In this document: in pieces, positions 1 to 63,836 of the stretch
How the letters are laid out: each line of letters opens with the position of its first letter
Position numbering within the stretch: the first letter of the stretch is position 1
Origin: an uncultured Gammaproteobacteria bacterium
GTDB lineage: Bacteria; Patescibacteriota; Microgenomatia; Daviesbacterales; UBA10151
DNA: 63,836 nucleotides
Reading direction: 5' to 3'
Assembly: GCA_964405065.1 (NCBI GenBank)
Contig: CAYOMO010000001.1
Location: forward strand, 1-63,836
Notes under the pieces: model-generated
Databases searched by the model: none
What the model was told of the DNA's origin: nothing
The model's input: only the letters and a program-made list of their open reading frames with translations
Made by a program: the position numbers and the translations under genes

Positions 1-1
1 T

Positions 2-310
2 CAATTTGATTGGCAAGATGTCATAAAAAAGCCAATTGGTGAATTTATGAGTAGATATTTTGCTCATCGAGGATTTGAAGATGGTTTACATGGATTAGCG
101 TTATCTTTATTACAAGCTTTTTCTCATTTAGTGATGATTCTTAAAGTCTGGGAAGCAACCCAGTTTGAGAAGAAACAGCTTGGTTATGAAGAGGTGGTTG
201 GTTTGATGAAAACTCAAGGAGAAGAGCTACATTATTGGTTTAAGTATTCCAATCTGTCAAAAAACCCTTTAAAACGAACCTTACAAAAAGTAAAAAACAA
301 GTTGTTTTAA
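2..310 (+). CDS. C-terminal fragment of a family-2 glycosyltransferase (5' end lies upstream of the window)
   Basis: Frame 2 is open from nt 2; QFDWQDVIKKPIGEF precedes the tracked Met at 47. The tail GLHGLALSLLQAFSHLVMILKVWE aligns by eye with the C-terminal tails of the GT2 proteins at 2760-3563 (GSVGVIDSLMQTFFLLTSYVRLWE) and 18611-19468. Confidence 0.55.
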   Translation, partial: QFDWQDVIKKPIGEFMSRYFAHRGFEDGLHGLALSLLQAFSHLVMILKVWEATQFEKKQLGYEEVVGLMKTQGEELHYWFKYSNLSKNPLKRTLQKVKNKLF

Positions 311-333
311 CCTGTCTAAAATTGGATTGATGC

Positions 334-2760
334 ATGCAAATATATTTTCGATCTAAGTATTTCCCCTATATCGTTGGGATTTTTCTGCTTACTTTAGTAA
401 CGGTGGGTCTGTTTTGGCCTTTTTTTGGAAAAGGGGAGATACCAATTCCGGGGGATATATTAATAGGGACTTATTATCCTTGGATAAATGAAACATGGGG
501 ATTTGCTGTTTCACCTCCGGTCAAAAATCCGCCTATGTCAGATGTGGTGTCTTTGATGTACCCGTGGAGAAAACTGGCTTATGATTACATTAGATCTGGT
601 CAGTTTCCTTTATGGGATGCCAATTCTTTTTTGGGACAGAGTCTGATTGGCAATTTTCAGGCTGGACTATTCAATCCGTTTAATATTTTATTTTTTCTGC
701 CGATTTCTTTTCAGATAGCTTGGGGTTGGCAGGTGGTTTTTCAACCATTTTTAGCCATGTGTTTTAGTTTCATTTTATTTAAACGATGGAAACTACAGTT
801 ACCAGCAGCAATTGCTGGCGCATTGGGGTATGGAATTTCAGGACCGATGCTTGTCTGGATGGAATACAATGTGCTGGGATTTTTGATAGCTTTGTTACCG
901 CTGTCACTATTAGTCGTAGATGTTTTTATTCAACAATCGAAAGCTCGTTTTCTACTGGGAATCAGTTTGGTGACCACTTTGGGAATATTTTTTGGCTATA
1001 TTCAGATGCTGTATTATGTGCTTTTTTTCTCATTTCTTTATGGGTTGGTTCTATCATATTCAAAAAAACAACCTTATTTGATTGTTCTTAAATGGGGTGT
1101 AATTTTTTGTTGTAGTGTTTTGCTAGGACTTTGTTTGGCGAGTATTCAGCTATTACCTGGCTTTGAGACGCTAGGTTTGTCGATACGTAATCTGGATGTG
1201 GTTGCGACTGGAAATGCCGTTACTTTTTTACCCTATTCTCAGTTAATAACTGGGTTGGTCGCAGATTTTTTTGGTAATCCTGCCACCTACAACTATTTTG
1301 GATCGGGATCTTATGAATCCTTTGCTTTTTATACCAGTATTGCTCTATTGCCATTTATCTTTTGGTCTTATGCTGATTCTTCACGAAGAAGATTGTCTAT
1401 TGTGATGACATTATTTGTTGCTGGAAGTTTACTTTTAGCTTTGTCAGGACCAGTATCCTGGCTAGTACAGTCATTGTCATTTTTAGGATTAAAAGGTTCT
1501 GTCAGTAGTCGGGTCTTATTTATTTTTAGTTTTGGGTTTAGTGCTTTAGGGGCTTTAGGTCTTCAAGCTGTTTTAGATCAAAAAAATAAAATTTTTCAAT
1601 TTAAAAGCTGTATTGGTTTGGCAACAATAAGTGGGATATTACTGGGTGTAATAATTGTTTGGCTTTGGTTTTACCAGTTGGCTGCATCCGTAGAATACAA
1701 AGAGTTTTTACTAGTTCATCTGAGCACAATTAAAATTGCTTTTAGGAATACTTTATTGCCAATTGGGATATGTTTTATTGCTACGGTCACTTTATTTTTA
1801 ATTCGAAGATTTAGACTGGCTGCATGGGTGATTGCTTTGCTAATTGTGGTGGATATGTTTCGTTTTTCAAGTAAATATGTCCCTTTTACTGCAGAAAATT
1901 TGGTTTTTCCCGAGACGAAAACTACTCAATATCTAAAAAGTATTTCATTGCCTTATAGGATAGGTATTGAAAAAGCAGAGTTGCTTACGGCTAATACCTG
2001 GAGTGTTTATAACTTACAAAGTATAACTGGATATAATATTTTGCTACCCCGTTCGACGGCTGATTTTGTAAGTGTTTTAAACAATGGAAAAACTGGTGAA
2101 GAAAATGCTAGATTTTTGGATATCAAAAATTTTGACTCAACGTTGCTTGATCAAGCCAATGTCGAATATATATTGACTTTGAAAAGAGAGTTGGGGTCTC
2201 CAAATGCCAGTGGTAAATTGAGTCATTTGATAGATACAGATAAATATCAAATTGTTTTTCAAGAGGGCCCAGTTGTGGTATTGAAAAATAAATTGAGTCT
2301 CGATCGGTTTTTTATTCCTAAAAAAGTGGAGTATGCAGATAAGCTACAGATTTATCAGTCTTTGGCAGAGTCAGGATATGATCCTAATACCGTTTTTGTT
2401 GATCGGCTAACTCAATCTATTAATACTGTTCTGGCCCAATGTGAGATAAAGCTACAGAGCTATCGTCAACAAAGCTATGATTTTCAGTCAGATTGCTCAG
2501 GATCTTCTTTGCTTGCAGTGAGTGAGACTTTTCAACCTGGTTGGAAAGTGAAAGTAAATGGTGAGAAGGAGAAGTTATTTAAAATTAACAACCAATTTCT
2601 GGGGATCCCTTTGTCAGCCGGAAAATCCCAGATTACATTGTATTATTTACCGGATACTTTTTTGATAGGAGCTGTGATGAGTGGAATAGGTTTAGTTATA
2701 ATATGTGTATTGTGGTTCTATTTGCCTAAGCTAAAGATGGTATTATTAACTAAACCATAA
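334..2760 (+). CDS. Large polytopic membrane protein, YfhO-like GT-C glycosyltransferase candidate
   Basis: 808-aa ORF. Many hydrophobic segments over the first ~520 aa, then a soluble domain and a final TM (IGAVMSGIGLVIICVLWFYL). The C-terminal block FQPGWKVKVNGEKEKLFKINNQFLGIPLSAGKSQITLYYLP is the pattern I associate with YfhO-family proteins. Family call by eye only. Confidence 0.65.
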   Translation: MQIYFRSKYFPYIVGIFLLTLVTVGLFWPFFGKGEIPIPGDILIGTYYPWINETWGFAVSPPVKNPPMSDVVSLMYPWRKLAYDYIRSGQFPLWDANSFLGQSLIGNFQAGLFNPFNILFFLPISFQIAWGWQVVFQPFLAMCFSFILFKRWKLQLPAAIAGALGYGISGPMLVWMEYNVLGFLIALLPLSLLVVDVFIQQSKARFLLGISLVTTLGIFFGYIQMLYYVLFFSFLYGLVLSYSKKQPYLIVLKWGVIFCCSVLLGLCLASIQLLPGFETLGLSIRNLDVVATGNAVTFLPYSQLITGLVADFFGNPATYNYFGSGSYESFAFYTSIALLPFIFWSYADSSRRRLSIVMTLFVAGSLLLALSGPVSWLVQSLSFLGLKGSVSSRVLFIFSFGFSALGALGLQAVLDQKNKIFQFKSCIGLATISGILLGVIIVWLWFYQLAASVEYKEFLLVHLSTIKIAFRNTLLPIGICFIATVTLFLIRRFRLAAWVIALLIVVDMFRFSSKYVPFTAENLVFPETKTTQYLKSISLPYRIGIEKAELLTANTWSVYNLQSITGYNILLPRSTADFVSVLNNGKTGEENARFLDIKNFDSTLLDQANVEYILTLKRELGSPNASGKLSHLIDTDKYQIVFQEGPVVVLKNKLSLDRFFIPKKVEYADKLQIYQSLAESGYDPNTVFVDRLTQSINTVLAQCEIKLQSYRQQSYDFQSDCSGSSLLAVSETFQPGWKVKVNGEKEKLFKINNQFLGIPLSAGKSQITLYYLPDTFLIGAVMSGIGLVIICVLWFYLPKLKMVLLTKP

Positions 2761-3563
2761 TGTTAAGTGTCATTATTATTACTAAAAATGAAGAGAGTCG
2801 GATCAAAGCCTGTTTAGAGTCGGTGAAATGGGCCAATGAAATTATTGTTGTAGATCAAGGTTCAACAGATAAAACACTCGAAATAGCTAAGCAATATGAT
2901 GCCAAAATTTTTCATAGTGACAGCACTGATTTTTCCGAGAGGCGCAATTTAGGGGCTGAAAAAGCTTCAGGTGACTGGTTGTTGTATATCGATGCTGATG
3001 AGAGAGTTTCCTCAGATCTAAAAGATGAATTATTTAGTATTTTTGAAGATTCTAGATTTACCGCTTACGCTATTTCTCGTAGAAATTTTATTTGGGGCGA
3101 GGAAAAAAAATATGGGCCATTTTATCCAGACTGGGTAATTCGGCTTCTGCATAAAGCCCATTTTAAAAAATGGGTAGGGAAAGTTCATGAATATCCACAA
3201 TTTGATGGAGAGATTGGATATACCAAAAACTCATTTATTCATCTGACTCATCGAAATGTTGATCAAGTGATTATGAAAAATCTGCAGTGGAGCAAAATTG
3301 ATGCCAAACTGCGTTTTGATGCTCATCATCCGCAAATGAGCGGTTGGAGGTTTTTACGAATTTTTATTACCGAAACCTGGAATCAAGGGATAGTCAGAAA
3401 AGGATTTTTTAATGGTTCAGTTGGAGTAATAGACTCTCTCATGCAGACATTTTTCTTGCTCACTAGTTATGTGAGACTTTGGGAGATGCAACAGAAAAAA
3501 CCGTTGGATCAGATATATGATGATTTAGATAGAAAACTAATTGATAATCACTTTAAGCTGTGA
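2760..3563 (+). CDS. Glycosyltransferase family 2 (GT-A fold)
   Basis: 267 aa. Carries LSVIIITKNEESRIKACLESV and VVDQGSTDKT nucleotide-binding signatures and a DADE (DxD) motif. The start overlaps the upstream stop (TAATG). Paralogous to 18611-19468. Confidence 0.85.
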   Translation: MLSVIIITKNEESRIKACLESVKWANEIIVVDQGSTDKTLEIAKQYDAKIFHSDSTDFSERRNLGAEKASGDWLLYIDADERVSSDLKDELFSIFEDSRFTAYAISRRNFIWGEEKKYGPFYPDWVIRLLHKAHFKKWVGKVHEYPQFDGEIGYTKNSFIHLTHRNVDQVIMKNLQWSKIDAKLRFDAHHPQMSGWRFLRIFITETWNQGIVRKGFFNGSVGVIDSLMQTFFLLTSYVRLWEMQQKKPLDQIYDDLDRKLIDNHFKL

Positions 3564-3670
3564 AGTGAGAAGTTAGATGTGTGAATCTGGAAGAAGAAGT
3601 GAGAGATGCGATAATCCTACATCACATTTCAAGAATCTATTTTCACATTTCCCACTTCTTACTTCTTTTT
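3562..3670 (+). repeat. Long imperfect inverted repeat followed by T5 (possible terminator/attenuator or structured RNA)
   Basis: The left arm GAAGTGAGAAGTTAGATGTGTGAA (3562-3585) pairs with the right arm TTCACATTTCCCACTTCTTACTTC (3642-3665). That gives 19 Watson-Crick pairs plus 2 G-U out of 24 positions. TTTTT follows at 3666-3670. Confidence 0.4.
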
Positions 3671-3680
3671 GGAATTAACA

Positions 3681-4757
3681 ATGAAAATCGCAGTATTTAG
3701 TCCTTATTTAGATACCAAAGGTGGTGGAGAGCGGTATATTTTAACCGTGGCTGCTATTTATTCTGAACATCATGAGGTCGATTTGCTTTTACCGACACAT
3801 TTACATAATTTACATCCCGAACAGTATAAAAAAGATGTTTCGGAAAGACTGGCAATTGATTTAAGCAAAGTGACTTTTGTACATGCTCCAATTGGTGTTG
3901 GTAGTAAAACAATGGATAGATACTTTTTTTTGCGCAGATACGATCTGCTATTTGCTGTGACGGATGGGAGTTTGTTTTTAGCTTCAAGCAAAAGAAATAT
4001 TTTGCATATTCAAACACCTCTTGATGTTCATCCCTCGGTAAGTAAATGGGGGAGAGTTAAGTTAAAAAGTTGGCATCAGATCATCTATAACTCAGAATTT
4101 ACCAAAAAGCATTCTCAAAAAAATTGGCCTTTGCCTTCGAAAGTAATTTATCCGCCAGTTGAGATTGAGCAAAGACATAAACTGGAGAAGAAGAATATTA
4201 TTTTGTCGGTTGGTCGGTTTTTTGGGTTTTTGAGGGAGAAAAAACATCAGATGATGATAGAGACGTTTGCCAAAATGGTTGAGCAGGGAAAAATTAAAGG
4301 CTGGGATTTGTATTTGGTAGGCTCCATGGAAGAAGGAGATCAGGAATATATCAATGAGTTGAAGTCTCTTGCTACTGGTTTACCAGTGATGATTTTGCCC
4401 AATATTTCTCACGAAGATTTAAAACATCTGTATGGGCTTTCGAAAATATATTGGCATGCCATGGGATATGGTGAAACTGATCCAACTAAAATGGAACACT
4501 TTGGAATTACGACAGTTGAGGCGATGTCAGCTGGGGTTGTACCTGTTGTGATCAGAAAAGGTGGTCAGATAGAGATTGTTGAAGAAGACAAGAGTGGATT
4601 ATTTTGGGAAACTGAGGGAGAATTAATAGAAGAGACTAAGAAATTGGTAGCTGATTCAAAGAAATTAGAACAACTTTCGACTGGAGCTGTCGAAAGAGCG
4701 CAAATGTTTAGTCAGGAACGCTTCATGAAGGAAATATTAGCTTTAATACATGATTAG
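3681..4757 (+). CDS. Glycosyltransferase family 4 (GT-B, Glycos_transf_1 type)
   Basis: ATG at 3681 (MKIAVFSPYLDTKGGGE) is preferred over the tracked TTG at 3669. EHFGITTVEAMSAGVVPVV is the E-x7-E motif of retaining GT-B enzymes. Confidence 0.85.
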   Translation: MKIAVFSPYLDTKGGGERYILTVAAIYSEHHEVDLLLPTHLHNLHPEQYKKDVSERLAIDLSKVTFVHAPIGVGSKTMDRYFFLRRYDLLFAVTDGSLFLASSKRNILHIQTPLDVHPSVSKWGRVKLKSWHQIIYNSEFTKKHSQKNWPLPSKVIYPPVEIEQRHKLEKKNIILSVGRFFGFLREKKHQMMIETFAKMVEQGKIKGWDLYLVGSMEEGDQEYINELKSLATGLPVMILPNISHEDLKHLYGLSKIYWHAMGYGETDPTKMEHFGITTVEAMSAGVVPVVIRKGGQIEIVEEDKSGLFWETEGELIEETKKLVADSKKLEQLSTGAVERAQMFSQERFMKEILALIHD

Positions 4758-6009
4758 ATTGTCGAATTTTAAAATTTGGTGGTTGCTTATCCCCGCTGTT
4801 ATGGTGAGGGTGTTTTTAGCGATGTCCACTTTTCATCCGGATGTTCGGGCTTTTAATCTGGCTGGTGATCTTATTGGTGGAGGTAATATTACAAATTTGT
4901 ATGATTATTTAGCTTCATGTACTGTGGATAATCCTTTAGTTAAAACATTTGGGGCTGATTTGTTTATTTATCCGCCACTGATTTATTTATTGCATGGAAT
5001 TTTTAATGTGTTTTTTTCATTTATTTTTGGAAAAGAAATAATGAATGGTTTTATGATCGAACAGGCATCATATTTTGGTAATTGGTTGTTTAATTTACAT
5101 TTGTTACTTCTTAAAATGCCATATTTTTTCTTTGATCTACCAGTTGTTTTTGCAATTACAAGTTTTTTTGAAAAAAAGCAGGAAAAAGTATGGGCAGCAC
5201 TTTTGTGGTTGTTTAACCCGGTTATTTTGTATTCAGGTTATATGATGGGGCAATTTGATCTGATTCCGGCTGTTTTAACTATTTATTCGCTTTGGTGTAT
5301 TAGAAAGAAAAAGCTTTATTTTGCGGCACTTTTGTTGGGATTGGCTGCTGCATTTAAACTCTACCCACTTTTTCTTGTTGTTCCTTTTATTATAATTGGT
5401 AAAAACTGGAAAGAAAAAATTTATTTAGGTAGTTTGGCTCTTTTGCCTTATATCCTGTCAATTATTCCTTTTCTTTCATCACATGGATTTAGAACATATG
5501 CTTTGATGGCAGGTCTGACTCAAAAAACATTGTATGCTCAAATACCAGTCTCCGGTGGTGAAAGTTTAATTTTATTTCCCTTATTACTTTTGGTGATGTA
5601 TTTTTATTTTTGGTTTTATGACAGATCAGTCGAAAGAATATGGCAAAGATGGTTTGTAGTTTTACTTAGTTTTTTCATTTTTACTCACTTTCATCCCCAA
5701 TGGCTAAGTTGGTTGGCACCATTTTTAGTTATCGAAGTAGTGAGTTTCCGATTTAAAACAGTATTACCTCATGTTTTTTTGGCGTTAAGTTTTATTGGTA
5801 TGATCTTTATGTTTGATCCTTCATTGACAGTGAAAATTTTTGCGCCACTTTTTCCGGCTTTGTATGCACTTCCAGGAACTTGGCAAGAATTGGGAATTAG
5901 AGTTGATGAGGTCTATATCAGAAGTATTTTACAGACTGTCTTTGCTTCAGCTTGTGTTTTTTATATTTATTTGTATTTTGCAAAGAAGTTACCTGAAAAA
6001 GCAGAATAA
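4750..6009 (+). CDS. Polytopic membrane protein, DUF2029/GT87-like GT-C candidate
   Basis: 419 aa with ~10 hydrophobic segments. LFNPVILYSGYMMGQFDLIPAV followed by LLGLAAAFKLYPLF mirrors LINPAVIYVASVWGQTDLIQNL and FAGIALMTKHTILL in the next gene (shared NPxxIxxxxxxGQxDLI motif). Overlaps the upstream gene by 8 nt. Confidence 0.55.
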   Translation: MIRLSNFKIWWLLIPAVMVRVFLAMSTFHPDVRAFNLAGDLIGGGNITNLYDYLASCTVDNPLVKTFGADLFIYPPLIYLLHGIFNVFFSFIFGKEIMNGFMIEQASYFGNWLFNLHLLLLKMPYFFFDLPVVFAITSFFEKKQEKVWAALLWLFNPVILYSGYMMGQFDLIPAVLTIYSLWCIRKKKLYFAALLLGLAAAFKLYPLFLVVPFIIIGKNWKEKIYLGSLALLPYILSIIPFLSSHGFRTYALMAGLTQKTLYAQIPVSGGESLILFPLLLLVMYFYFWFYDRSVERIWQRWFVVLLSFFIFTHFHPQWLSWLAPFLVIEVVSFRFKTVLPHVFLALSFIGMIFMFDPSLTVKIFAPLFPALYALPGTWQELGIRVDEVYIRSILQTVFASACVFYIYLYFAKKLPEKAE

Positions 6010-6028
6010 TTGTTGAATTATTTTATTG

Positions 6029-6071
6029 TTAAATTGTTGTTCACACAGTTCATGCGCAGCTAACAATTTAA
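6029..6071 (+). repeat. Inverted repeat TTAAATTGTT / AACAATTTAA in the intergenic region
   Basis: TTAAATTGTT (6029-6038) and its exact reverse complement AACAATTTAA (6062-6071) flank a 23-nt GC-richer loop. A further AATTTAACAAT copy lies at 6091-6101. Confidence 0.4.
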
Positions 6072-6116
6072 TAAGTGAGCTTACGCTCTTAATTTAACAA
6101 TCTAACAATAATTACA

Positions 6117-7424: not shown

Positions 7425-7433
7425 ATTATTAAT

Positions 7434-9179: not shown

Positions 9180-9215
9180 TTACGTTACTTCATAATCAGC
9201 TAGCATGACTGTTTA

Positions 9216-9301
9216 TTGGAAGTTGGAAGTTAGAGGCTAGATAAAGAGATTGGAAGCTAGAAGTTTGATCTAATATCCAATTTCTAACATCCAACTTCCA
9301 A
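9216..9301 (+). repeat. 86-nt imperfect hairpin built from TTGGAAG-type repeats
   Basis: TTGGAAGTTGGAAGTTAGA (9216-9234) versus TCTAACATCCAACTTCCAA (9283-9301) gives 18 of 19 complementary positions. Inner ATTGGA/TCCAAT and TAGA/TCTA pairs extend the structure. No T-run follows. Confidence 0.5.
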
Positions 9302-9413
9302 ACTACAAATATATTGTGCAAGTTGCCGAACTTACACAGTTAATTTAATGCAACCCAGTTGCTTTTGTCAACCTATCATTTACTTTTTTTATATTAAACT
9401 ATATACTCGCTTC

Positions 9414-9977: not shown

Positions 9978-9986
9978 TAATTAACA

Positions 9987-11741: not shown

Positions 11742-11784
11742 TATATACTAAACTGGAGTGTAAATTGGTATAGTTAATCTTGTC

Positions 11785-11805
11785 ATCCTGAATTTATTTC
11801 AGGAT
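11785..11805. promoter_or_regulatory. Perfect 8-bp palindrome ATCCTGAA-N5-TTCAGGAT in a divergent intergenic region (candidate operator)
   Basis: Read directly from the sequence. It sits between the divergent starts of paralog 2 (11741, minus strand) and paralog 3 (11875-11911, plus strand). Confidence 0.35.
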
Positions 11806-11874
11806 CTTCCAACTATATTTAATGTATAGACTTAATGGTTATCATAAAATTTATTTTGTTTGCGATCTTGGAAG

Positions 11875-50270: not shown

Positions 50271-50296
50271 ATTAAGACAAGTTTAAAGCCTGAAAT

Positions 50297-51990: not shown

Positions 51991-51993
51991 ATT

Positions 51994-54693: not shown

Positions 54694-54789
54694 AAGTTAA
54701 AAGTATAATCGATGAATCTACTAAAACAAACAACAAAAGAGTTGTTTTGCGTGTTTTCATATATGTAACTATAGTGTAAAATCCAGGCA

Positions 54790-56544: not shown

Positions 56545-56545
56545 G

Positions 56546-59500
56546 ATGAAAGCTTTTTCTGACTTCAGATATTTTCTGGTAATTGCTTTAATTAGTTTTT
56601 TGACGGTATCTATTTGGTTTAGGCATGGATATCAGCTGGGTACTGCTGAAGGTGGACTCCCATTTAATAATTTACAGCGTCATGCTGAAATTTTTCGTTG
56701 GGCTTGGGGGGATGGAGCGATGGGAAATTCAACCAGTTTTTTGGTCGCCTCATATCCGACATATTTTTTCCTATCTCAGTTTGAAAAGATCGGTGTGTCT
56801 GGTTTTATTATTGAGGCAACTGTTTTTTGGTTCATTCTAACTACTTCTGGAATTGGTATATTTCTGATTGCCCGAAGAATAGCAATTATTACGGGAGGTT
56901 TTTCTTTATTTGCAGTGTTTTTTTATTGGTTATCACCATTCGTATTGGTAAATGTTTGGAACCGGTTTTTATACAATCACATTTTTTTTCTTGCTCTTTT
57001 ACCACTTTGTTTTTATACCTATTGGAGAGGAATTCAGCAAAAAAAATATTCTTATCTTTTTTTGACCGTTTTGATTACGTTTTTTTATAGTTATGCGCTT
57101 ACCGCATTGGCTCTAACTACGCTACTTTTTATTGTATTTGGCTTTGTGAGTATTTATTGGATAGTTATTTTCAAAGCCCGTAATTTAAAGTTTATTTTTT
57201 TGTATAATTTACTGTTTGGATTCACTTTTGGTTTGGTTCACGCTTGGTGGCTGTCTCAGCTATTATTTATCGGTTCGTCGGCAAATTTTGCGGAGTCGGT
57301 TAGTTCATTTTTCTCTACGGAGGGCAATATCAGTGGTTTAACTGAAATAAGTCGGAAGCTGGGATCATTTATTGATCTGACGCGATATATCCATTTCAAT
57401 TTTTTCTATGATCATTCGGCTCCCTGGTCAGAGGCTTTAAGTTCACAATTGGCTTTTATTTTAAATTCAATCATTTTATTTGTTACCTTCATTGGTATTG
57501 TATTGGGTCGGAAAAATAAAGTGATATTGTTTTTTGCTTTATTCTTTTTGTTGTCTTTTTTCTTATCCAAAGGAAATAGTCCACCTTTTGGGGAATTGTA
57601 TACCTACTTTTTTGTTAAGATTTCTTTCTTGCAAATCTTTCGAAATCCCATCGAAAAAATTGGTTTAATTTCAGTTTTTTGCGGGTCACTAATAACTGCC
57701 TATGCTCTTGATGGTTTGCATCAGCGATATATCGCAAATTATACACAGAGATTTGAAGGTCGAAATTATTTACTGATCTTTCCATTACTATTGATTGGCA
57801 TTTTTTGGGGCTGGCCATTTTTTTCTGGAATTATGTTTTCTGTCTATAAAAATACGGCTGGAGAGGTAGCTTTATATCAAAGTTTAGTCCCTAGCTATTA
57901 CAAAGAGGCTGATATTATGATGTCTCAGGATGCTAGTATTTCCAGATTTCTGGCGTTGCCTTTGATGGGGGAAGGTATTACCTATGAATGGCCTATTCAT
58001 TATAGCGGAATTGATATTTATAGTACCCTTTTTCATAAACAAAATATTGCTCTTAATACAACGATTCCTTTTTATAATCAGGTAATTTATCAATTGGTTA
58101 GTTATCAATTAAAGCCAGATCTGGTCTACTTTTTGCCATATCTTGCAGTGGATCACATTCTGTTACGACGTGACGTAGCTTTTCAAGAACGTGCTTATCC
58201 CGATCCTTCACAAACTGAAGAGAATTTAAAACAACTTGAGAGTAAACAGTTAGTTAAAAAAGAGGTCGATTTTGGAGAGTTGTCGCTTTATCAGGTAGAG
58301 AAGTCTCTAAATTGGGGGAAATTTTATACTACCAACCAAATTGTTTTTACGAATGGAGTAGATTTTGCCAAAATGACAGATGGTGTTTCTGAACACAAAA
58401 GGGTATATATCAATCCTTTAATGTTTAAATCATTGCCAATTGACCCGATGGAAATACAGCTTTTTCCGGATAAGATAACATCGTACAATTGGTTGAAACC
58501 ATATCAATCTTATAACGATCAAAATTTATACGATAAATTAGTATATGTGAAGCATTCGCCCGATGATGTGATTTACCCATTTGTTAGATCCAAAGAATTA
58601 TTAACATCACTATTATATGCTGACTATCCAAAATGGGTTTTATTTAATATTAATTTATTAGGTAAACGAGCAGTTGAAATTTGTCGATATGATACAAATG
58701 CAGTTCAACCATCTAAAGAAAATAAGTTGGTCGAAAATTATCAAGCGGAGTTTCAGAATTTACAGGACCATATTCAACGGATTTCAAATGAGAATCGAGC
58801 ATTAAAGAGTGAAATATTTCAGTCTGTTATTACTCAGGCATTACTTTTGGATCGTTGTCAAAAAATAAATATAAATTTTTTCTTAGATTTTTTTGCTGAA
58901 GTCGGTATTATTTCGCCTTTTTCCAAACAGATCAGTTATGAAAATTTAACTGATGTCTCGTATCAGGTGCCTCAGTCAGGAAGTTATCTGGTAAAGAATG
59001 ATTTTGGCCAAGATTCAGATCAAATTCCAATTATTTTGACCCAGGGGAATTATAAAAAGCAGTTTTTAGAGGATGATACTTACACTAAACAAGTTGTGGC
59101 AGAATTTTCTGATTTTACGATTGATTCTAAATGGGTAGATTCTGAGCCGATAGAAATTGAGGATTATAATGCGCTGTATTCAGTAAAAGTTGATTATCAG
59201 ATTCAGTCAGGTGATTTTATGGCAATTTATGCCAAGCAAGATAACGATCCAAAATCTCAACCACGTTATTTAAATGAGTTACCAGCTCAGAATACTCAGT
59301 TTTCCATTGAGTTTTCTCCTTCATTGGGGGCAAAATATTTTCAGATTGGGATAACTGGTGATAAAAATGAATATTGTAAAGATAAATGCTCTGCACATCA
59401 AAATTCGCTTAAACTTTATGTGAAAAAGTTGGAGATTATAAAAAAAACATTTCAGTTGCCACATTTTGTTTTAAAGCAGAAAAAACCGATTCAGGAATCG

Positions 59501-59812
59501 TTGATAAGTTGGAGTAAGAAATCGCCAGTTGAATATGAGATAACAGTTAACAAAACTGATTCTCAGCCTGAGATTTTGGTATTTTCTGAATTGTTTGGTC
59601 AAGGATGGGAAATTCAAGGACAATCTTTCCAGCATATTTTAGTAAATGGATTTGCAAATGGTTGGATTTTAGATAAAGCAGGAACTTTTAAAACAACAGT
59701 CTATTATTTACCTCAAAGAAATCTTGATTTGGGTTATCAAATATCATTTGGAGCTTTATTCGCAACGATAAGTATTCTTTGGGGAGTAAAAAAATATGAA
59801 AAACATCGTTAA
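56546..59812 (+). CDS. Giant polytopic membrane protein, AftD/DUF3367-like GT-C candidate (paralog B)
   Basis: 1088 aa. Carries SIWFRHGYQLGTAEGGLPF and IFRNPIEKIGLISVF. A ~650-aa soluble region follows, then a C-terminal NGFANGWIL plus a TM. Confidence 0.6.
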   Translation: MKAFSDFRYFLVIALISFLTVSIWFRHGYQLGTAEGGLPFNNLQRHAEIFRWAWGDGAMGNSTSFLVASYPTYFFLSQFEKIGVSGFIIEATVFWFILTTSGIGIFLIARRIAIITGGFSLFAVFFYWLSPFVLVNVWNRFLYNHIFFLALLPLCFYTYWRGIQQKKYSYLFLTVLITFFYSYALTALALTTLLFIVFGFVSIYWIVIFKARNLKFIFLYNLLFGFTFGLVHAWWLSQLLFIGSSANFAESVSSFFSTEGNISGLTEISRKLGSFIDLTRYIHFNFFYDHSAPWSEALSSQLAFILNSIILFVTFIGIVLGRKNKVILFFALFFLLSFFLSKGNSPPFGELYTYFFVKISFLQIFRNPIEKIGLISVFCGSLITAYALDGLHQRYIANYTQRFEGRNYLLIFPLLLIGIFWGWPFFSGIMFSVYKNTAGEVALYQSLVPSYYKEADIMMSQDASISRFLALPLMGEGITYEWPIHYSGIDIYSTLFHKQNIALNTTIPFYNQVIYQLVSYQLKPDLVYFLPYLAVDHILLRRDVAFQERAYPDPSQTEENLKQLESKQLVKKEVDFGELSLYQVEKSLNWGKFYTTNQIVFTNGVDFAKMTDGVSEHKRVYINPLMFKSLPIDPMEIQLFPDKITSYNWLKPYQSYNDQNLYDKLVYVKHSPDDVIYPFVRSKELLTSLLYADYPKWVLFNINLLGKRAVEICRYDTNAVQPSKENKLVENYQAEFQNLQDHIQRISNENRALKSEIFQSVITQALLLDRCQKININFFLDFFAEVGIISPFSKQISYENLTDVSYQVPQSGSYLVKNDFGQDSDQIPIILTQGNYKKQFLEDDTYTKQVVAEFSDFTIDSKWVDSEPIEIEDYNALYSVKVDYQIQSGDFMAIYAKQDNDPKSQPRYLNELPAQNTQFSIEFSPSLGAKYFQIGITGDKNEYCKDKCSAHQNSLKLYVKKLEIIKKTFQLPHFVLKQKKPIQESLISWSKKSPVEYEITVNKTDSQPEILVFSELFGQGWEIQGQSFQHILVNGFANGWILDKAGTFKTTVYYLPQRNLDLGYQISFGALFATISILWGVKKYEKHR

Positions 59813-60155
59813 ATATTTCAGACAAAATAAAATAAAAAAAATAATGGTCATTTTGTTTTTATTGATTCTTGGTATTAATTATATTTATGGTTACAGATAT
59901 TCAATCCCTTTAATTGACAATTTGGTTTATAAAAACAGTTACTATCCTTTGGTTTTTTTATGGATCGGATTGGTCTGGTGTTGGAAATTATCAGAAAAAT
60001 TTTTGTTTAAAATCGGTTTTATATTATTTTTTTTCTCCAGTTTTTATCAATTGATTGATAAACGAATTGTTGCTGAAATATTAATGAGTTACTGTCTATT
60101 AGTTTTTTTAACTGCTACGATATTATCAATTAAAAAGAGTATTTCAAATGAATAG
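59796..60155 (+). CDS. Small four-TM membrane protein, unknown function
   Basis: 119 aa. Four hydrophobic segments (IMVILFLLILGINYIYG, YYPLVFLWIGLVWCW, FKIGFILFFFSSFYQL, ILMSYCLLVFLTATILSI). Overlaps the upstream gene by 17 nt. Confidence 0.6.
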   Translation: MKNIVKYFRQNKIKKIMVILFLLILGINYIYGYRYSIPLIDNLVYKNSYYPLVFLWIGLVWCWKLSEKFLFKIGFILFFFSSFYQLIDKRIVAEILMSYCLLVFLTATILSIKKSISNE

Positions 60156-60327
60156 AATAGTCCTGTTGTTTGCTTTAATATTTGTTTTGCATTTATTTGC
60201 AGCTATTTTTTTGGTCTTAACCAACCATCATGGTTGGCTTTATCCGATTTTTAGAAATATTTTTTACGGAACTATTTTAATCACTTTAATCGATATTTTT
60301 TATTTATTTACAACTTCTAAAAAATGA
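60148..60327 (+). CDS. 59-aa two-TM mini-protein (not in the supplied ORF track)
   Basis: Hand translation gives MNRIVLLFALIFVLHLFAAIFLVLTNHHGWLYPIFRNIFYGTILITLIDIFYLFTTSKK*. The ATG overlaps the upstream TAG by 8 nt, and its TGA forms an ATGA junction with the next gene. It exactly fills the gap between the two neighbours. Confidence 0.5.
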   Translation: MNRIVLLFALIFVLHLFAAIFLVLTNHHGWLYPIFRNIFYGTILITLIDIFYLFTTSKK

Positions 60328-62951
60328 AAATCTTTGTGATTGTTTTATTACTATTTTGGATAGGACTTCTACCATTTTGGAAAGCCGCTCATGACTTGCC
60401 CTACTCTTCGCAATCTTTTGTTGCAAGTCAATTACAGCTACCAACTGCTTGGAATGCAGTTGGTGGTGTTTTTGGTCAAAACCAGTTGGCAACTTTATGG
60501 TCCTGGCCAAATAATACTGTCTATTCACTAGGAGCTTCGATAGGTATTAGTTTTAATTGGTTAATCCCTTTACTGGGCATATTACCGGTTTTAATAATTG
60601 GTTTTTGGGGGATGTATTTTTTTTCCGGCATTTTTATGGCTAGTCGAGATGCTCGGTTGATAGCGGCGCTTTTTTTTCTGACAAATTCCTATATTTTGCT
60701 AGTTATCGACGGTGGGCAACTTTTATGGGGTTTGGCTTATGGAATTATTCCCTGGTGTTTAGTTACATTCTATCGTTACATCAACCAAAAGCGGCATGTT
60801 GGCTGGTTTTTATTCTGCTTTATTCTGCTTAGTTTTGCTGATCTCAGAGCGATTTATCTTTTAGGAATTATTTTAGTGATCTATTTATTAATAGAGATTT
60901 TAAGAAAACCACAAATTGGTTATTTGGTGTTTTTTATTAGGGTATTACTGGCTGGTTTATTAGCTGTTTTATGTTTAGTCCTATTGCATGCTTACTGGTT
61001 ATTACCACTTTTGATGTCGCAATCTTCAGTATTGCCTTCAAATTTATCAATTTCTTCGGAGGCAGATTTTTTATCTTTTATTAGTTTGAGTCATGCTTTT
61101 GTTTTACAACAGCCACACTGGTATTTAAATATCTTTGGTCAACTGCAACCTATTAGATTGGAGTTTATCTGGATACCTCTGCTGATTATTCCAATTTTTA
61201 TAAATAAAAGATGGTTGAATGTTCAGTTGCTGGTAATTCTGTTGGTTGGAGTATTTTTGGCGAAGGGAAATCAACCGCCTTTGGGGAGTTTATATGCACA
61301 TTTACTAAATTACATTCCGGGATTTTTTTTATTTCGAGATTCAAGTAAATTTTTTATTCTTATTGCTTTGGTTTATGCTGTTTCAGTTGGATTGTTGGTT
61401 CAGCAATTGGAAGATGCGAGGGGGCGTTTTAAAAAGTATTCCCGTTTGTTAGTCGGAGTTGTAGTAGCGCTTGTCGTTTTGATGGTTTGGCCTACTTTTA
61501 CTGGTCAAATGACAGGTTTGCTTGGTTTTTCTAAGCAAGTAGCTGAATATCAGCAGCTCGAGCAAATTTTAAAAACTGACTCATCAGAAGGTCGGGTATT
61601 GTGGATTTCTTCTAAACCACCGCTAGGGTATATGGATCAGTCAAATGTAGCCATAAATGCCGTTGATTTGATAGGTCTTCGACCTTTTAGTACTGGAATC
61701 AGGGGGACTTATGAAACACTCAACTTTTTGCGAGAAGCTTCTTATTCTGGACAGTTGTTACAAATTTCTGGAATAAAAAAGCTGGTTTATGCTTTTCCGG
61801 ATCCCAATAAAAAATACAAAGTAGATGAACAAGATTATTATGATCTGTTCTTGCAGCAATTGCAGGGTAGAGACTGGGTTTCTCCTACTGAGAACAGTCA
61901 GGTTTTAAATCTTCAAAAACCACAGCCTTTATTTCATATTCCACAAAATTATTATTTGGTAGTTGGTTCTGATGCTCTATATGGTGAGTCCACTCTATCT
62001 GCCCAGCAGAATCTTGTCAACAATGGATTAATTTTTGTAGAAGAAGAAATCTCTCCTGATCTCAATACAAATCTATTGAAACATCCAGTACTTTTATATA
62101 AAAAAGAACTTCTTGATGTAGCTATGCAGCTAGTTGATCCAAAGTACTTTTATTTTCCAAGCCAAATACTGAATTCATCTCCAAACCAAACTGGCTGGTG
62201 GAAAAGAGATACCGGTGACTTTTTATCATTTCATGATTTTTTAAAACAGAAATATCAGATCGAGAATACTGATTTTGACTTGAGAGGAGGATGGGCAGTA
62301 TCTGAAGGTCAAAACTCTCTAACAATTTCGAAAAAAGGAACACCAAATGATATTGTTCTAATCAGGCTGTTAGAAAGTAGTAGAAGTGGTGAATTGAGTG
62401 TTGAAGCAGACAATCAGAGTATTAAAAAGCTAAATACTAGTCAGGGGAAAGATCAAGTTCAGTGGCGAATTGTCGGATCAGCCGAAAAAGATTTTTCCCA
62501 GCTGACTTTAAAAACTACTGGTGATATACATTTGGTGAATGCTATTGCGATAGTCCCTAAGGCCATATTTAATCAAAGGTTACACCAGGTTGAAAGCATA
62601 CCAAAATTCTATACTAAGCTTGGAGAAAATGATGCTAATGACTCTCAAGCAAAAGTTGTTTTTGAAAAATTAAATGATGATCAGTATCAGCTTGAAGTCA
62701 CGAATCTAAGCAAACCTTCTCTGATCGTTTTTAATCAAAGATATGATCCGAAATGGACAATAAATGGTCAGCCAGCAATTCCAGTTTATTCAATTTTTAA
62801 TGGATTTTTTATTGATAAAAATGGTACATATTTAGTCGAATATAGCCCACATCGATACCTCTTTTTAGGCGGAATGATTAGTACTGGGAGTTTACTGCTT
62901 TTAATAGGCAGTGTAGTGTATAGATATTATGCAGATACGAGAAAAAATTAA
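60324..62951 (+). CDS. Giant polytopic membrane protein, AftD/DUF3367-like GT-C candidate (paralog C, more divergent)
   Basis: 875 aa and multi-TM. Carries LFRDSSKFFILIALVY. A ~430-aa soluble region follows, then YDPKWTINGQPAIPVYSIFNGFFI plus a C-terminal TM. Confidence 0.55.
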   Translation: MKIFVIVLLLFWIGLLPFWKAAHDLPYSSQSFVASQLQLPTAWNAVGGVFGQNQLATLWSWPNNTVYSLGASIGISFNWLIPLLGILPVLIIGFWGMYFFSGIFMASRDARLIAALFFLTNSYILLVIDGGQLLWGLAYGIIPWCLVTFYRYINQKRHVGWFLFCFILLSFADLRAIYLLGIILVIYLLIEILRKPQIGYLVFFIRVLLAGLLAVLCLVLLHAYWLLPLLMSQSSVLPSNLSISSEADFLSFISLSHAFVLQQPHWYLNIFGQLQPIRLEFIWIPLLIIPIFINKRWLNVQLLVILLVGVFLAKGNQPPLGSLYAHLLNYIPGFFLFRDSSKFFILIALVYAVSVGLLVQQLEDARGRFKKYSRLLVGVVVALVVLMVWPTFTGQMTGLLGFSKQVAEYQQLEQILKTDSSEGRVLWISSKPPLGYMDQSNVAINAVDLIGLRPFSTGIRGTYETLNFLREASYSGQLLQISGIKKLVYAFPDPNKKYKVDEQDYYDLFLQQLQGRDWVSPTENSQVLNLQKPQPLFHIPQNYYLVVGSDALYGESTLSAQQNLVNNGLIFVEEEISPDLNTNLLKHPVLLYKKELLDVAMQLVDPKYFYFPSQILNSSPNQTGWWKRDTGDFLSFHDFLKQKYQIENTDFDLRGGWAVSEGQNSLTISKKGTPNDIVLIRLLESSRSGELSVEADNQSIKKLNTSQGKDQVQWRIVGSAEKDFSQLTLKTTGDIHLVNAIAIVPKAIFNQRLHQVESIPKFYTKLGENDANDSQAKVVFEKLNDDQYQLEVTNLSKPSLIVFNQRYDPKWTINGQPAIPVYSIFNGFFIDKNGTYLVEYSPHRYLFLGGMISTGSLLLLIGSVVYRYYADTRKN

Positions 62952-63836
62952 CCAGCTTGTTTTACTCATTCAAACTAAAACTTTTAGACAAAGTCTTTTG
63001 ACGGTATCAACTGTTGGAATAAATGGTATTTTGGGAGCTATCTTTTTTATCTGTATTGCGCGAATGTTAGGGCCCTCTGAGTATGGGGTTTTTGCTTTAG
63101 CAATTGCTTCATTAACACTGATAGCTGACATTGCTGATTTTGGTACCAATACCGGTATTGTTAGATTTGTGCCAGGTTTAATTAAACATCAACCTGCAGA
63201 TGCTTATCGGATGCTGAAGCTGAGTTTGGAGATAAAAGCAGTGGTTTGGTGTTTGGTGTTGCTGGTGGGATTTTTCCTGATTCCATTTATTGTTATCACT
63301 ATTTTTGGGAAAGTTGAGCTAATTTTTCCACTTCAGTTGAGTTTAATTGGAGTGGGCGGAGCAATGTTTTATACTTATACCCAGTCAGTACTCCAGGCTT
63401 TTGAAAAATATCGTTTATGGAGTTTTTTAAATCTTTTTACCAATGGTTTACGGCTTTTCATTACATTGGTTTTGAGTGTTCTAGTTGGTTTGAATGTATT
63501 TAGCGGTTTGCTGCTTTATATCAGTATTCCTTTTATTGGATTTTTAATTGGTTGTAGTTTGTTGCCAATTCGTCAGATTGTATCAGCCCAGAAAGAGACA
63601 AATTTATTCAAAGATTTTCGTTCTTACAACAGTTATATTGCCATCTTTACTTTAATTGCGGCTTTTTCGAACAGAATTGATATGTATCTTGCCGCCAAGT
63701 TACTAAACCCTGATGAGGTTGGTATCTACGGTGCTGCTGTGCAGCTGAATTCATTTATTCCACAAATAATGGGCGGGCTAGGAGTGGTAGTAGCTCCAAA
63801 GTTTGCTTCTTTTACCACGCAACATCAAATGATTGG
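62929..63836 (+). CDS. Wzx/MOP-superfamily flippase, 3'-truncated by the window edge (not in the supplied ORF track)
   Basis: ATG at 62929, frame open to the end of the window. MQIREKINQLVLLIQTKTFRQSLLTVSTVGINGILGAIFFICIARMLGPSEYGVFALAIASL carries the same LGPS(D/E)YG N-terminal motif as the flippase at 21651-22916. Overlaps the upstream gene by 23 nt. Confidence 0.7.
   Translation, partial: MQIREKINQLVLLIQTKTFRQSLLTVSTVGINGILGAIFFICIARMLGPSEYGVFALAIASLTLIADIADFGTNTGIVRFVPGLIKHQPADAYRMLKLSLEIKAVVWCLVLLVGFFLIPFIVITIFGKVELIFPLQLSLIGVGGAMFYTYTQSVLQAFEKYRLWSFLNLFTNGLRLFITLVLSVLVGLNVFSGLLLYISIPFIGFLIGCSLLPIRQIVSAQKETNLFKDFRSYNSYIAIFTLIAAFSNRIDMYLAAKLLNPDEVGIYGAAVQLNSFIPQIMGGLGVVVAPKFASFTTQHQMI

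Follow-up and report, generated by a model that had tools for sequence, protein, structure and literature searches.

The stretch of DNA analysed here (the window, 63,836 bp) is a complete contig in which glycan-assembly genes are packed around 16 polytopic membrane proteins with evidence of being GT-C-type glycosyltransferases. The window is probably the variable, GT-C-rich arm of an envelope-glycan island of at least ~95 kb, in which synthesis would be initiated by a phosphoglycosyltransferase (PGT), intermediates would be moved across the membrane by Wzx flippases, and GT-C enzymes would elaborate the product outside the cytoplasm. Because GT-C proteins normally account for a fraction of a percent of the genes of typical bacteria, 16 of them in 52 genes cannot be due to chance.

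The 52 genes comprise 49 non-nested open reading frames (ORFs) of at least 100 aa, two partial genes at the contig ends and one 59-aa membrane ORF. Coding sequence covers ~98% of the window (GC ~34%), 43 of 50 genes lie on the + strand, and start and stop codons often overlap. A Pfam scan of every ORF revealed no housekeeping gene among the 52, and neither a tRNA nor an Rfam family was found in the 63,836 bp. The same scan counts 11 family 2 glycosyltransferases (GT2; including the 5´ partial gene, the full-length orthologue of which is a GT2 in contig L072 of a relative), five of family 4 (GT4), two Wzx flippases (Polysacc_synt), one of which is cut by the contig end, five methyltransferase domains, one of them fused to a GT2, one Acyl_transf_3 protein, one carbamoyltransferase and a set of sugar-nucleotide enzymes. 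Among all ORFs there was no match to Bac_transf, MraY/WecA (Glycos_transf_4), Wzy_C, Wzz or ABC-transporter families; Wzx is present in the window (21651-22916 and 62962-63836), and PGT, Wzy/Wzy_C and Wzz are missing from it. A six-frame search of the window for PGT motifs was also negative, as were loci L001-L016 for all patterns; the pattern 'DEFPQF' fits the real core PGT described below, which also reads 'LVGPRA'. Gene count, gene content, family inventory and the absence of a PGT, Wzy, Wzz or ABC exporter thus reproduce what a preliminary description of the window had proposed.

GT-C proteins and lipid-linked donors

All 16 polytopic proteins have 6-13 transmembrane (TM) segments by a crude hydropathy count. 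They are, in order of position:

334-2760, + strand: YfhO-type GT-C, 808 aa, ~11 TM plus a C-terminal TM (Pfam YfhO, 95.5 bits)
4750-6009, + strand: GT87/PIG-M-like GT-C, 419 aa (GT87, 25.7 bits, cut-off 25; PIG-M; NF046093)
6117-7424, + strand: GT-C of an ALG6/GT87-like family, 435 aa, no Pfam match of its own (called from family members)
7434-9179, + strand: PMT_2 GT-C, paralogue 1 of 6 (PMT_2, 54 bits; D-E after TM1)
9987-11741, - strand: PMT_2 GT-C, paralogue 2, inverted (PMT_2, 38 bits; PMT, 27 bits; GC 0.414)
11860-13584, + strand: PMT_2 GT-C, paralogue 3 (PMT_2, 44 bits; PMT, 39 bits)
13556-15247, + strand: PMT_2 GT-C, paralogue 4 (PMT_2, 33 bits)
15244-16899, + strand: PMT_2 GT-C, paralogue 5 (PMT_2, 57 bits)
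16896-18572, + strand: PMT_2 GT-C, paralogue 6 (PMT, 45 bits; PMT_2, 43 bits)
20503-21654, + strand: PIG-V/PMT_2-like GT-C, 383 aa (Mannosyl_trans2, 32.3 bits, cut-off 22.4)
22879-24444, + strand: divergent PMT_2-like GT-C, 521 aa (PMT_2, 26.6 bits, cut-off 26.1)
37116-39755, + strand: AftD-like GT-C, 879 aa, C-terminal extracytoplasmic domain and terminal TM (blastp, L015 orthologue)
44230-45933, + strand: GT-C of a family without Pfam or NCBIfam model, 567-aa ORF (AF2/Foldseek)
47086-49398, + strand: GT-C of a second model-less family, 770 aa, ~13 TM plus a C-terminal alpha/beta domain (AF2/Foldseek)
56546-59812, + strand: AftD-like GT-C, 1088 aa (GT-C_AftD, 19.2 bits over 496 residues, cut-off 26)
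60324-62951, + strand: AftD/MmpA/YfhO-like GT-C-family protein, 875 aa (NCBIfam MmpA, 51 bits; hhalign)

Ten of the 16 reach or touch the Pfam cut-offs of GT-C families (YfhO, GT87/PIG-M, PMT_2 and PIG-V). The first of them, 334-2760, also matches the C-terminus of PgfM1/PgfM2 in NCBIfam and carries 'PGD' after TM1. The six tandem PMT_2 paralogues share 27-35% identity pairwise and form an array that is visible in the DNA itself as a conserved 64-nt segment with a period of ~1.67 kb. D39-E40 directly after TM1 is invariant in all six, and four match Pfam PMT (PF02366) as well. An extracellular loop with a DxD motif, or a modified form of it, is usual for GT-C enzymes (PMC8035078).

Two proteins, 44230-45933 and 47086-49398, were assigned by fold. 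Their homologues in a database of 5.8 billion proteins (13 and 31, respectively) include none with a Pfam domain. The AlphaFold2 (AF2) models have confidence scores (pLDDT) of 86.9 and 91.6, and their secondary structure agrees with the TM counts. The top PDB matches in Foldseek were almost exclusively GT-C structures at probabilities of 0.96-1.00 (STT3, ArnT, PglB, AglB, AftA/B/D, DPY19 and Pmt4), namely STT3, ArnT, AftB, PglB and DPY19 for 44230-45933, and STT3 (4e-5) followed by DPY19, AftD, PglB and AglB for 47086-49398; transporters scored probabilities of 0.3 or less in both searches. As the TM-scores of these matches are modest (0.33-0.45; 0.35-0.45 for STT3), the models identify both proteins as GT-C by fold class and not by orthology. 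In the family of 44230-45933, Y-G-D-E-W after TM1 is invariant (D53-E54). The public gene call for this protein (P0032, 520 aa) starts at M48 and leaves out TM1; since homologues are ~550 aa long and residues 1-23 of the 567-aa ORF have pLDDT values under 50, translation probably starts near M16. The family of 47086-49398 has a conserved G-G-D136 that does not directly follow TM1. Joining the two proteins in one family, or 47086-49398 to the AftD-like family described below, was tried and dropped at hhalign probabilities below 20%, and all were kept separate.

The protein at 6117-7424 was placed through its relatives. It has 1277 homologues with an invariant D28 after TM1, and of 50 aligned members nine match GT87, five Alg6_Alg8, three PMT_2, one PIG-U and one Mannosyl_trans4, while none of these 50 matches a Wzy or transporter family. 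It is also weakly linked to 4750-6009 by sequence. The remaining three, 37116-39755, 56546-59812 and 60324-62951, constitute one family (blastp; hhalign 99.9%, E 7e-37, 778 columns), with a blastp E of 3e-24 between the first two. Both of these carry AE(E/G)G after TM1 ('AEEG' in 37116-39755), and PF11847 (GT-C_AftD) is precomputed in their orthologues in L015 (of 37116-39755) and L075 (of 56546-59812). The family of 60324-62951 has an invariant D24 after TM1, and one distant homologue of this type (P0243) carries YfhO. The MmpA match of 60324-62951 was considered as an argument against a GT-C and dropped, because partial homology of MmpA itself to the N-terminal TM region of AftD has been reported (PMC8698533).

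All 16 polytopic proteins thus have GT-C evidence from sequence or models, graded from strong to indirect (ten by Pfam, two by fold, one via family members and three via AftD/MmpA/YfhO links), and none resembles a transporter. This bears out the GT-C assignment of the preliminary description, for which a majority of matches to transporter families would have spoken otherwise. No meaningful match came from profile searches of the PDB with the families of 47086-49398, 44230-45933, 6117-7424 and 60324-62951, and a mixed AftD-like alignment reached AftD at no better than E 0.15. Judged by these comparisons, 44230-45933, 47086-49398 and the 60324-62951 type represent at least three GT-C families that appear to match no curated model or PDB sequence.

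The candidate sources of donors for these enzymes are four GT2s of the DPM1/GtrB/ArnC type, an assignment supported at family level by matches to DPMS, GtrB, ArnC and AglJ and in agreement with the preliminary description:

24356-25240, + strand: DPM1-type GT2 without TM helix, candidate polyprenyl-phosphate sugar synthase (PDB, NCBIfam)
27372-28790, + strand: methyltransferase fused to a DPM1/AglJ-type GT2 (Pfam; AglJ, 102 bits)
39785-40810, + strand: GtrB/ArnC-type polyprenyl-phosphate glycosyltransferase, GT2 plus 2 TM (PDB, NCBIfam)
42355-43161, + strand: DPM1-type GT2 (PDB DPMS 5MLZ, Dol-P-hexose transferase)

The alignment of 39785-40810 with GtrB (5EKP, E 3e-17) and ArnC spans the whole protein, which also scores 85 bits with PgfS and 68 bits with ArnC in NCBIfam. 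The best PDB match of 24356-25240 is 5MLZ, the archaeal Dol-P-Man synthase (DPMS, 3e-15), followed by GtrB and ArnC, with PgfS and PpgS in NCBIfam. For 42355-43161, 5MLZ is the sole PDB match (1.7e-9), and Dol-P-hexose transferase scores 60 bits; the GT2 half of 27372-28790 scores 50 bits with the latter in addition to its AglJ match. All four fall below the NCBIfam equivalog cut-offs, and the donor sugars can therefore not be named. The C-terminal two-TM anchor that is a feature of GtrB and ArnC is found in 39785-40810 only; the remaining three, which are soluble, may depend on a membrane partner, the catalytic domain of mycobacterial Ppm1 being soluble too. The co-location of these synthases supports the prediction that the GT-C proteins use lipid-phosphate-linked donors. 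With all 16 polytopic proteins GT-C-like and four such GT2s present, the GT-C-heavy and largely extracytoplasmic character predicted for the machinery in the preliminary description is supported, as is its prediction of a heavily decorated product.

Two of the four synthases belong to a five-gene module (39785-44231) that encodes, in order, the GtrB-type GT2, a short-chain dehydrogenase/reductase (SDR), a TIM-barrel epimerase, a DPM1-type GT2 and, on the opposite strand, an FAD-dependent oxidoreductase of the DAO family. This order is the same in at least four assemblies (L016, L073, L074 and L076), where the module adjoins the GT-C 44230-45933. By analogy to DprE1/DprE2, it might oxidise, epimerise and reduce a lipid-linked sugar.

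A conserved core beyond the window

The contig ends inside the locus, and the flanks were studied in the nearest genome, the metagenome-assembled genome (MAG) GCA_964636275.1. Three of its contigs tile the window collinearly at 76-82% nucleotide identity: L072 covers 1-9177 (76%), L073 covers 34409-46932 (81%) and L001 covers 49406-63833 (82%). In this relative, the locus continues for at least 10 kb upstream and ~21 kb downstream of the window equivalent, and the idea that the window holds the whole supercluster has to be given up. The island is predicted to span at least ~95 kb with at least 21 GT-C proteins, 16 in the window and at least five in the flanks, and has ~45-50 glycosyltransferases. 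Taking genome size from the 0.74-0.84-Mb contigs of relatives, it amounts to roughly a tenth of a ~1-Mb genome.

The downstream flank begins with the remainder of the Wzx gene, followed by a methyltransferase and two GT2s, the first of them DPM1-like; behind these lie two PMT_2 GT-Cs, a GT4 and a 510-aa polytopic protein, another GT4, a hexapeptide acetyltransferase and a 191-aa anchored protein. Next come a Wzy_C-family protein ~10.4 kb past the window-end equivalent (PF04932, 37 bits, cut-off 31.7), a third PMT_2 and three GT4s with an inverted rsmH among them, and finally a 229-aa PglC-type PGT of the Bac_transf family, ~18-19 kb past the same point (PF02397, 200.7 bits, L017), and a DUF4012 protein, before RecO and GlyRS. 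Because the relative carries Wzy_C and PGT just past the window end, their absence from the window is best read as a contig-edge effect. No Wzz was found in the window or among the 20 flank ORFs covered by a partial scan; a DUF4012 protein sits at the place that such a protein might hold. DUF4012 is enriched in the Candidate Phyla Radiation (CPR) and associated with gene clusters for capsular polysaccharides and exopolysaccharides (CPS/EPS; PMC6744442).

Upstream, the relative has a paralogue of 6117-7424 and a protein like 22879-24444. Polytopic proteins of 412, 487 and 1128 aa in this flank could not be classified; the 487-aa protein (12 TM) shows Wzx-like similarity at E 0.007 only, and an hhalign comparison to the AftD-like family was negative. 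The 1128-aa protein (L072 2640-6026) combines a signal-like N-terminus with ~12 TM and a soluble domain of at least roughly 400 aa, and matched none of the families compared.

A search of 185,579 species genomes with the 395-aa core GT4 of the downstream block retrieved 55 loci, nearly all from Daviesbacteria, Woesebacteria or other Microgenomates MAGs (GT4 at 63-83% amino acid identity). Across these, the 395-aa GT4 is present in 54, Wzy_C in 51, PGT and DUF4012 in 49 each and RecO in 48. The genes follow an almost invariant order: PMT_2, PMT_2, GT4, GT4, acetyltransferase, anchored protein and Wzy_C, then PMT_2, three GT4s, PGT and DUF4012, and then RecO and GlyRS. The position of rsmH varies: some genomes have it inverted within the series of GT4 genes, others have it downstream of GlyRS. 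The core GT4 (L017 10001-11188; 63-83%) and PGT (L017 14876-15565; 72-88%) are far more conserved than the rest of the island, which suggests an essential, lineage-wide function for the two.

The window genes fall upstream of this core, and by gene order and content the window is the predicted variable arm of a lineage-wide envelope-glycan locus. Block 37116-63836 is collinear as a unit in three genomes and only partly present in other relatives. The nearest relative ceases to be syntenic at ~9177, where an orphan ORF (9348-9977), an inverted PMT_2 gene and raised GC and GC3 (GC at third codon positions) begin; in the relative, two other PMT_2 genes occupy the site of this orphan and of the inverted gene. 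In four of the six paralogues (7434-15247), GC is 0.39-0.41 and GC3 0.35-0.41, compared to ~0.33 and ~0.25 elsewhere, and region 7434-15247, especially 9180-13584, looks like a replaced cassette. That the arm differs even between ~80%-identical genomes suggests diversifying selection by hosts or phages, in parallel to O-antigen loci.

Host and remaining genes of the window

Sequence relationships place the host in the Microgenomates group of CPR/Patescibacteria, related to Daviesbacteria and Woesebacteria, since GlyRS and RecO of the relative are nearest to Daviesbacteria and other island genes are nearest to Woesebacteria MAGs. Many MAGs with the locus are titled 'uncultured Gammaproteobacteria' and one 'Pseudomonadales' (L001-L004, L007, L010, L011 and L017-L071). 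GlyRS, RecO, PGT and GT4 of MAGs so titled group with Daviesbacteria, Woesebacteria or Patescibacteria MAGs, and judged by these genes the 'Gammaproteobacteria' titles look like placeholder or erroneous taxonomy. GC skew is above zero in every 2-kb bin of the window (0.04-0.22); the title of a paper on a closed Microgenomates genome refers to an unusual nucleotide composition disparity between the DNA strands (PMC7143001).

The genes of the window other than the GT-C proteins and the four DPM1/GtrB-type GT2s are:

1-310, + strand: C-terminal end of a GT2, cut by the contig end (frame-2 translation; 300-aa orthologue L072 9076-9978)
2760-3563, + strand: GT2 (Pfam Glycos_transf_2, 84 bits)
3669-4757, + strand: GT4 (Pfam Glycos_transf_1, 83 bits)
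9348-9977, + strand: orphan ORF, 209 aa, at the synteny breakpoint, without Pfam or NCBIfam match
18611-19468, + strand: GT2 (Pfam)
19470-20522, + strand: GT4 (Pfam)
21651-22916, + strand: Wzx-type (MOP) flippase (Polysacc_synt, 54 bits)
25244-26371, + strand: GT4 (Pfam, 124 bits)
26414-27385, + strand: GDP-L-fucose-synthase-like SDR, 6-deoxyhexose epimerase/reductase (NF047922, 270 bits, cut-off 500)
28762-29619, + strand: GT2 (Pfam)
29616-30740, + strand: GT4 (Pfam)
30730-31569, + strand: S-adenosylmethionine (SAM) methyltransferase (Pfam)
31569-32651, + strand: UDP-GlcNAc 2-epimerase-like protein (Epimerase_2, 120 bits; WecB, 116 bits, below cut-off)
32640-33158, - strand: hexapeptide (WcaF-like) acetyltransferase
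33190-34242, + strand: GT2 with one C-terminal TM
34270-35391, + strand: DegT/PseC/ArnB-type sugar aminotransferase (Pfam, 385 bits)
35384-36391, + strand: GFO/IDH/MocA oxidoreductase, UDP-GlcNAc 3-dehydrogenase-like (NF040723, 103 bits, below cut-off)
36377-37015, - strand: sugar N-formyltransferase-like protein (Formyl_trans_N, 83 bits)
40807-41568, + strand: SDR-like NAD(P) protein, 253 aa (weak Pfam Epimerase/RmlD; N-terminal GxxGxxG)
41565-42383, + strand: xylose-isomerase-like TIM barrel of the keto-sugar epimerase type (AP_endonuc_2, 104 bits; IolO, psicose 3-epimerase)
43149-44231, - strand: FAD-dependent (DAO family) oxidoreductase (Pfam DAO, 63.5 bits)
45914-47089, + strand: GT4 (Pfam)
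49395-50270, + strand: GT2, rhamnosyltransferase-like
50297-50932, + strand: SAM methyltransferase
50929-51990, + strand: GT2
51994-52875, + strand: SAM methyltransferase
52872-53609, - strand: SAM methyltransferase
53602-54693, - strand: Acyl_transf_3 membrane O-acyltransferase (Pfam, 90.7 bits)
54790-56544, + strand: NodU/CmcH-type carbamoyltransferase (Carbam_trans_N and _C; NodU, 97 bits)
59796-60155, + strand: small 3-TM membrane protein, 119 aa, candidate GtrA/GacJ-type helper (size, position)
60148-60327, + strand: 59-aa 2-TM ORF, kept in the relative at 56% identity
62962-63836, + strand: Wzx-type flippase, cut by the contig end (Polysacc_synt, 68 bits; full 431-aa orthologue in L001)

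The 300-aa GT2 of L072 that corresponds to 1-310 resembles the downstream GT2 of L001. A 3-amino-3-deoxy-HexNAc with N-formyl or N-acetyl group is predicted from 35384-36391, 34270-35391, 36377-37015 and 32640-33158, a 2-epimerised HexNAc of the ManNAc type from 31569-32651, and a 6-deoxyhexose from 26414-27385. A role in glycan assembly had been claimed for all but three genes of the window. The inventory agrees with this, with the exception that 40807-41568 (no NCBIfam or PDB match), 41565-42383 and 43149-44231 are assigned to such work by context only. One of the unassigned genes, the orphan 9348-9977, had been called arginine-rich, a label that was dropped at 8% Arg; by our annotation it is the sole gene lacking a glycan-type call, and it is missing from the relative at that position and has no counterpart in any fetched locus. 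The 119-aa protein (59796-60155) gave no GtrA, SMR or exosortase match even in a lenient Pfam scan (E <= 10), and matches no other family either. It sits between two AftD-like GT-Cs, shares 89% amino acid identity with its counterpart in the relative compared to 77-82% for its neighbours, and recurs as a 117-aa gene in a 308-kb JGI contig (L075).

A proposed pathway, its alternatives and known systems

From the enzyme families, their number and clustering and the conserved core, we infer a pathway in which the order of steps, donors, decorations, acceptor and each chemical step are proposals. The PglC-type PGT of the core beyond the 3´ end would prime a polyprenyl-phosphate carrier, and cytoplasmic GT4 and GT2 enzymes would extend the glycan using nucleotide sugars. 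Wzx flippases, of which the window encodes two and the upstream flank of the relative may encode a third, would then move the lipid-linked intermediates outward. In parallel, the four DPM1/GtrB-type GT2s would make polyprenyl-phosphate monosaccharides, one of which may be remodelled by the conserved trio of FAD oxidase, TIM epimerase and SDR. Outside the membrane, the 16 GT-C proteins of the window and at least five of the flanks would extend and branch the glycan(s) from lipid-linked donors, and methyl-, carbamoyl- and O-acyltransferases would decorate the product. Finally, the Wzy_C-family enzyme of the core would polymerise the product or ligate it to an acceptor, giving a wall-linked polymer, a lipid-anchored glycan or a glycosylated surface protein. 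So large a set of enzymes, with ~45-50 glycosyltransferases and more than one flippase, makes a short repeat unit implausible; most likely, the island makes several glycoconjugates or one large, non-repeating heteroglycan similar to lipoarabinomannan (LAM) or arabinogalactan (AG).

A number of observations weigh against this reading. The products are predicted from genes alone, and PGT, Wzy_C and the flanks come from relatives. Operon breaks, several flippases and the cassette-like variable segment argue for several products. No GtrA-type flippase, Wzz/polysaccharide co-polymerase (PCP) or LCP ligase was identified in the window and the partly Pfam-scanned flank ORFs. As to the GT-C calls, the TM-scores of the two fold matches are modest, the matches of 37116-39755, 56546-59812 and 60324-62951 are sub-threshold or indirect, and MmpA, the nearest named relative of the last, is not a proven glycosyltransferase.

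The alternatives differ in the number and nature of the products. It is conceivable, and only somewhat less probable than not, that the island is a set of independent surface-glycosylation modules, each with a GtrB/DPM1-type synthase and a GT-C and each acting on an acceptor of its own, which cluster solely because they share a surface-variation hotspot with a separate Wzx/Wzy_C polysaccharide pathway. Four synthases and at least two or three Wzx proteins fit such an arrangement, as do the intergenic breaks and strand switches that divide the genes into ~7 units, the loss of synteny at ~9177 with a different PMT_2 array and raised GC/GC3 beyond it, and the behaviour of 37116-63836, which travels as a unit in three genomes and is incomplete in other relatives. 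Bacillus subtilis, Lactococcus lactis and Listeria carry several independent GT-A/GT-C pairs (PMC8035078). Yet the genes are tightly packed with start and stop codons overlapping across module borders, 16 GT-C proteins and four synthases are not in a one-to-one relation, and the flanks examined have a single PGT and a single Wzy_C. The modular explanation overlaps the PGT-initiated, Wzx-flipped island preferred here and differs from it only in the number of products. An ordinary Wzx/Wzy capsule or O-antigen-like locus, with the polytopic proteins miscalled and in fact polymerases, ligases or transporters, is by comparison very improbable and largely refuted. The extended locus does have a PGT, Wzx and a Wzy_C-family protein, and DUF4012 accompanies CPS/EPS loci, but none of the 16 proteins matches Wzy_C, transporter or permease families while all have GT-C evidence, transporters scored far below GT-C in both fold searches, and polyprenyl-phosphate-monosaccharide synthases are foreign to standard repeat-unit assembly. 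The preliminary description had held that a standard PGT/Wzy/Wzz set just outside the window would make the locus ordinary. PGT and Wzy_C do lie there in the relative, with no Wzz in the ORFs scanned, but the conclusion does not follow because the island has at least 21 GT-C proteins and four or five polyprenyl-phosphate-sugar synthases.

Protein O-glycosylation is unlikely to be the main function. It would cast the PMT_2 paralogues as O-mannosyl-type transferases and have either Wzy_C, as a PglL/WsaB-like O-oligosaccharyltransferase, or the STT3-like GT-Cs 44230-45933 and 47086-49398 transfer lipid-linked glycans en bloc to surface proteins such as pilins or the S-layer. Consistent with this are the PMT matches of four of the six paralogues, their D-E motif, the resemblance of 334-2760 and 39785-40810 to PgfM1/PgfM2 and PgfS, respectively, of protein glycosylation in Streptococcus mutans, and STT3 as the best fold match of both new GT-C families. 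Wzy_C is also a domain of O-oligosaccharyltransferases. Furthermore, pili and sortase systems are prominent in CPR (PMC6744442). Against it, no MIR or PMT_4TMC module was reported with the PMT/PMT_2 domains in the Pfam scans, so that the paralogues do not qualify as GT39 PMTs; a WWDYG-type motif is missing from the invariant and near-invariant columns of the 47086-49398 family, where F550-x-D552-G553 comes nearest; no candidate acceptor protein is encoded in the island; and characterised Gram-positive PMT_2 GT-Cs decorate wall polymers (PMC8035078). A bolder variant of the island model, which we likewise regard as improbable, is an assembly line like those of the endoplasmic reticulum (ER) or mycobacteria, with at least three new GT-C families, 39785-44231 as a non-homologous analogue of DprE1/DprE2 and STT3-like en bloc transfer to protein. 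If true, the remodelled donor would feed the adjacent new GT-Cs, one of which could be the STT3-like transferase, with surface proteins involved in host attachment as its target.

All parts of the island belong to known kinds, and it is not categorically new. What is unusual is the density and diversity of GT-C proteins, the model-less GT-C families, module 39785-44231, and the division into a core and a variable arm across Microgenomates. A life attached to host cells is assumed for CPR/Patescibacteria, and to our knowledge almost nothing is known of their surface chemistry. We found no description of GT-C-rich CPR loci in the literature; one Microgenomates genome paper merely mentions '29 genes of glycosyl transferases' (PMC7143001). 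For a genome of ~1 Mb, the island indicates a surface glycome as complex as that of mycobacteria. Its core (PGT, DUF4012, Wzy_C, three GT4s and three PMT_2s), conserved across Daviesbacteria and Woesebacteria, is a defined target for genetics in those few relatives that can be cultivated and for glycan analysis of enrichments, and the model-less families widen the known GT-C sequence space and are good structural and biochemical targets.

Several known systems share elements with the island. The Arn pathway (ArnABCDT) also combines a DegT aminotransferase, a formyltransferase, a two-TM ArnC-like GT2 and ArnT-like PMT_2 GT-Cs. However, the ArnA decarboxylase domain, the ArnD deformylase and ArnE/F were not found here, all matches are far below equivalog cut-offs, and a monoderm CPR organism would have no lipid A acceptor. 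The eukaryotic and archaeal pathways of lipid-linked oligosaccharides (ALG/Agl) have in common with the island cytoplasmic GT4 and GT2 enzymes, a MOP flippase, DPM1/ALG5-type Dol-P-sugar synthases and lumenal GT-Cs, with family-level matches to ALG6/8, PIG-M, PIG-V and AglJ and STT3 as the best fold match of two proteins; WWDYG is lacking here, and the primer is of the PglC type and not of the ALG7/MraY type. CPS/EPS loci with Bac_transf and DUF4012, as in Bifidobacterium longum (cited in PMC6744442), likewise place the PGT beside DUF4012 and have Wzx, Wzy_C, GT2/GT4 and acetyltransferases. These loci measure 20-30 kb and are without a GT-C array or polyprenyl-phosphate-monosaccharide synthases, and no Wzz/tyrosine-kinase module was seen in the island.

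The assembly of AG and lipomannan (LM)/LAM in mycobacteria and corynebacteria (AftA-D, EmbA-C, MptA-D/GT87, PimE, Ppm1 and DprE1/E2) resembles the island in the use of many different GT-Cs in series on the outer face with polyprenyl-phosphate sugars, in AftD/MmpA-like and GT87-like members, in a DPM1-type synthase and in a possible DprE1/E2-like sugar remodelling. The differences are that no Emb, AftA/B/C, UbiA or DprE1 (FAD_binding_4) family was found here, that the oxidase is of the DAO type and goes with a TIM-barrel epimerase, that the genes form one island whereas those of mycobacteria are spread over a 4-Mb genome, and that the phylum is another, without mycolate context. In the established Gram-positive scheme of multi-component transmembrane glycosylation, a GT-A synthase of C55-P-sugar, a flippase of the GtrA or Wzx type and a GT-C decorate wall polymers, among them secondary ones made by Wzx/Wzy. 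Examples are CsbB/GtcA/YfhO, GtlA/GtlB, GacI/J/K/L and GtsABC on the secondary cell wall polysaccharide (SCWP) of Bacillus anthracis (PMC8035078), and Gtr serotype conversion is comparable. Shared with these systems are the GtrB-type synthase (39785-40810), YfhO- and PMT_2-type GT-Cs and Wzx-type flippases and, with the Gram-positive ones, the monoderm host and the decoration of a Wzx/Wzy-made backbone outside the membrane. In contrast to the one to three GT-Cs per system, the island has 16 in 64 kb and at least 21 in total; no member of the GtrA family was detected, and at least three of its GT-C families are without a curated model. By analogy, the island would be best described as the Gram-positive scheme of transmembrane glycosylation scaled up ~10-fold, reminiscent of mycobacterial LM/LAM and arabinogalactan assembly.

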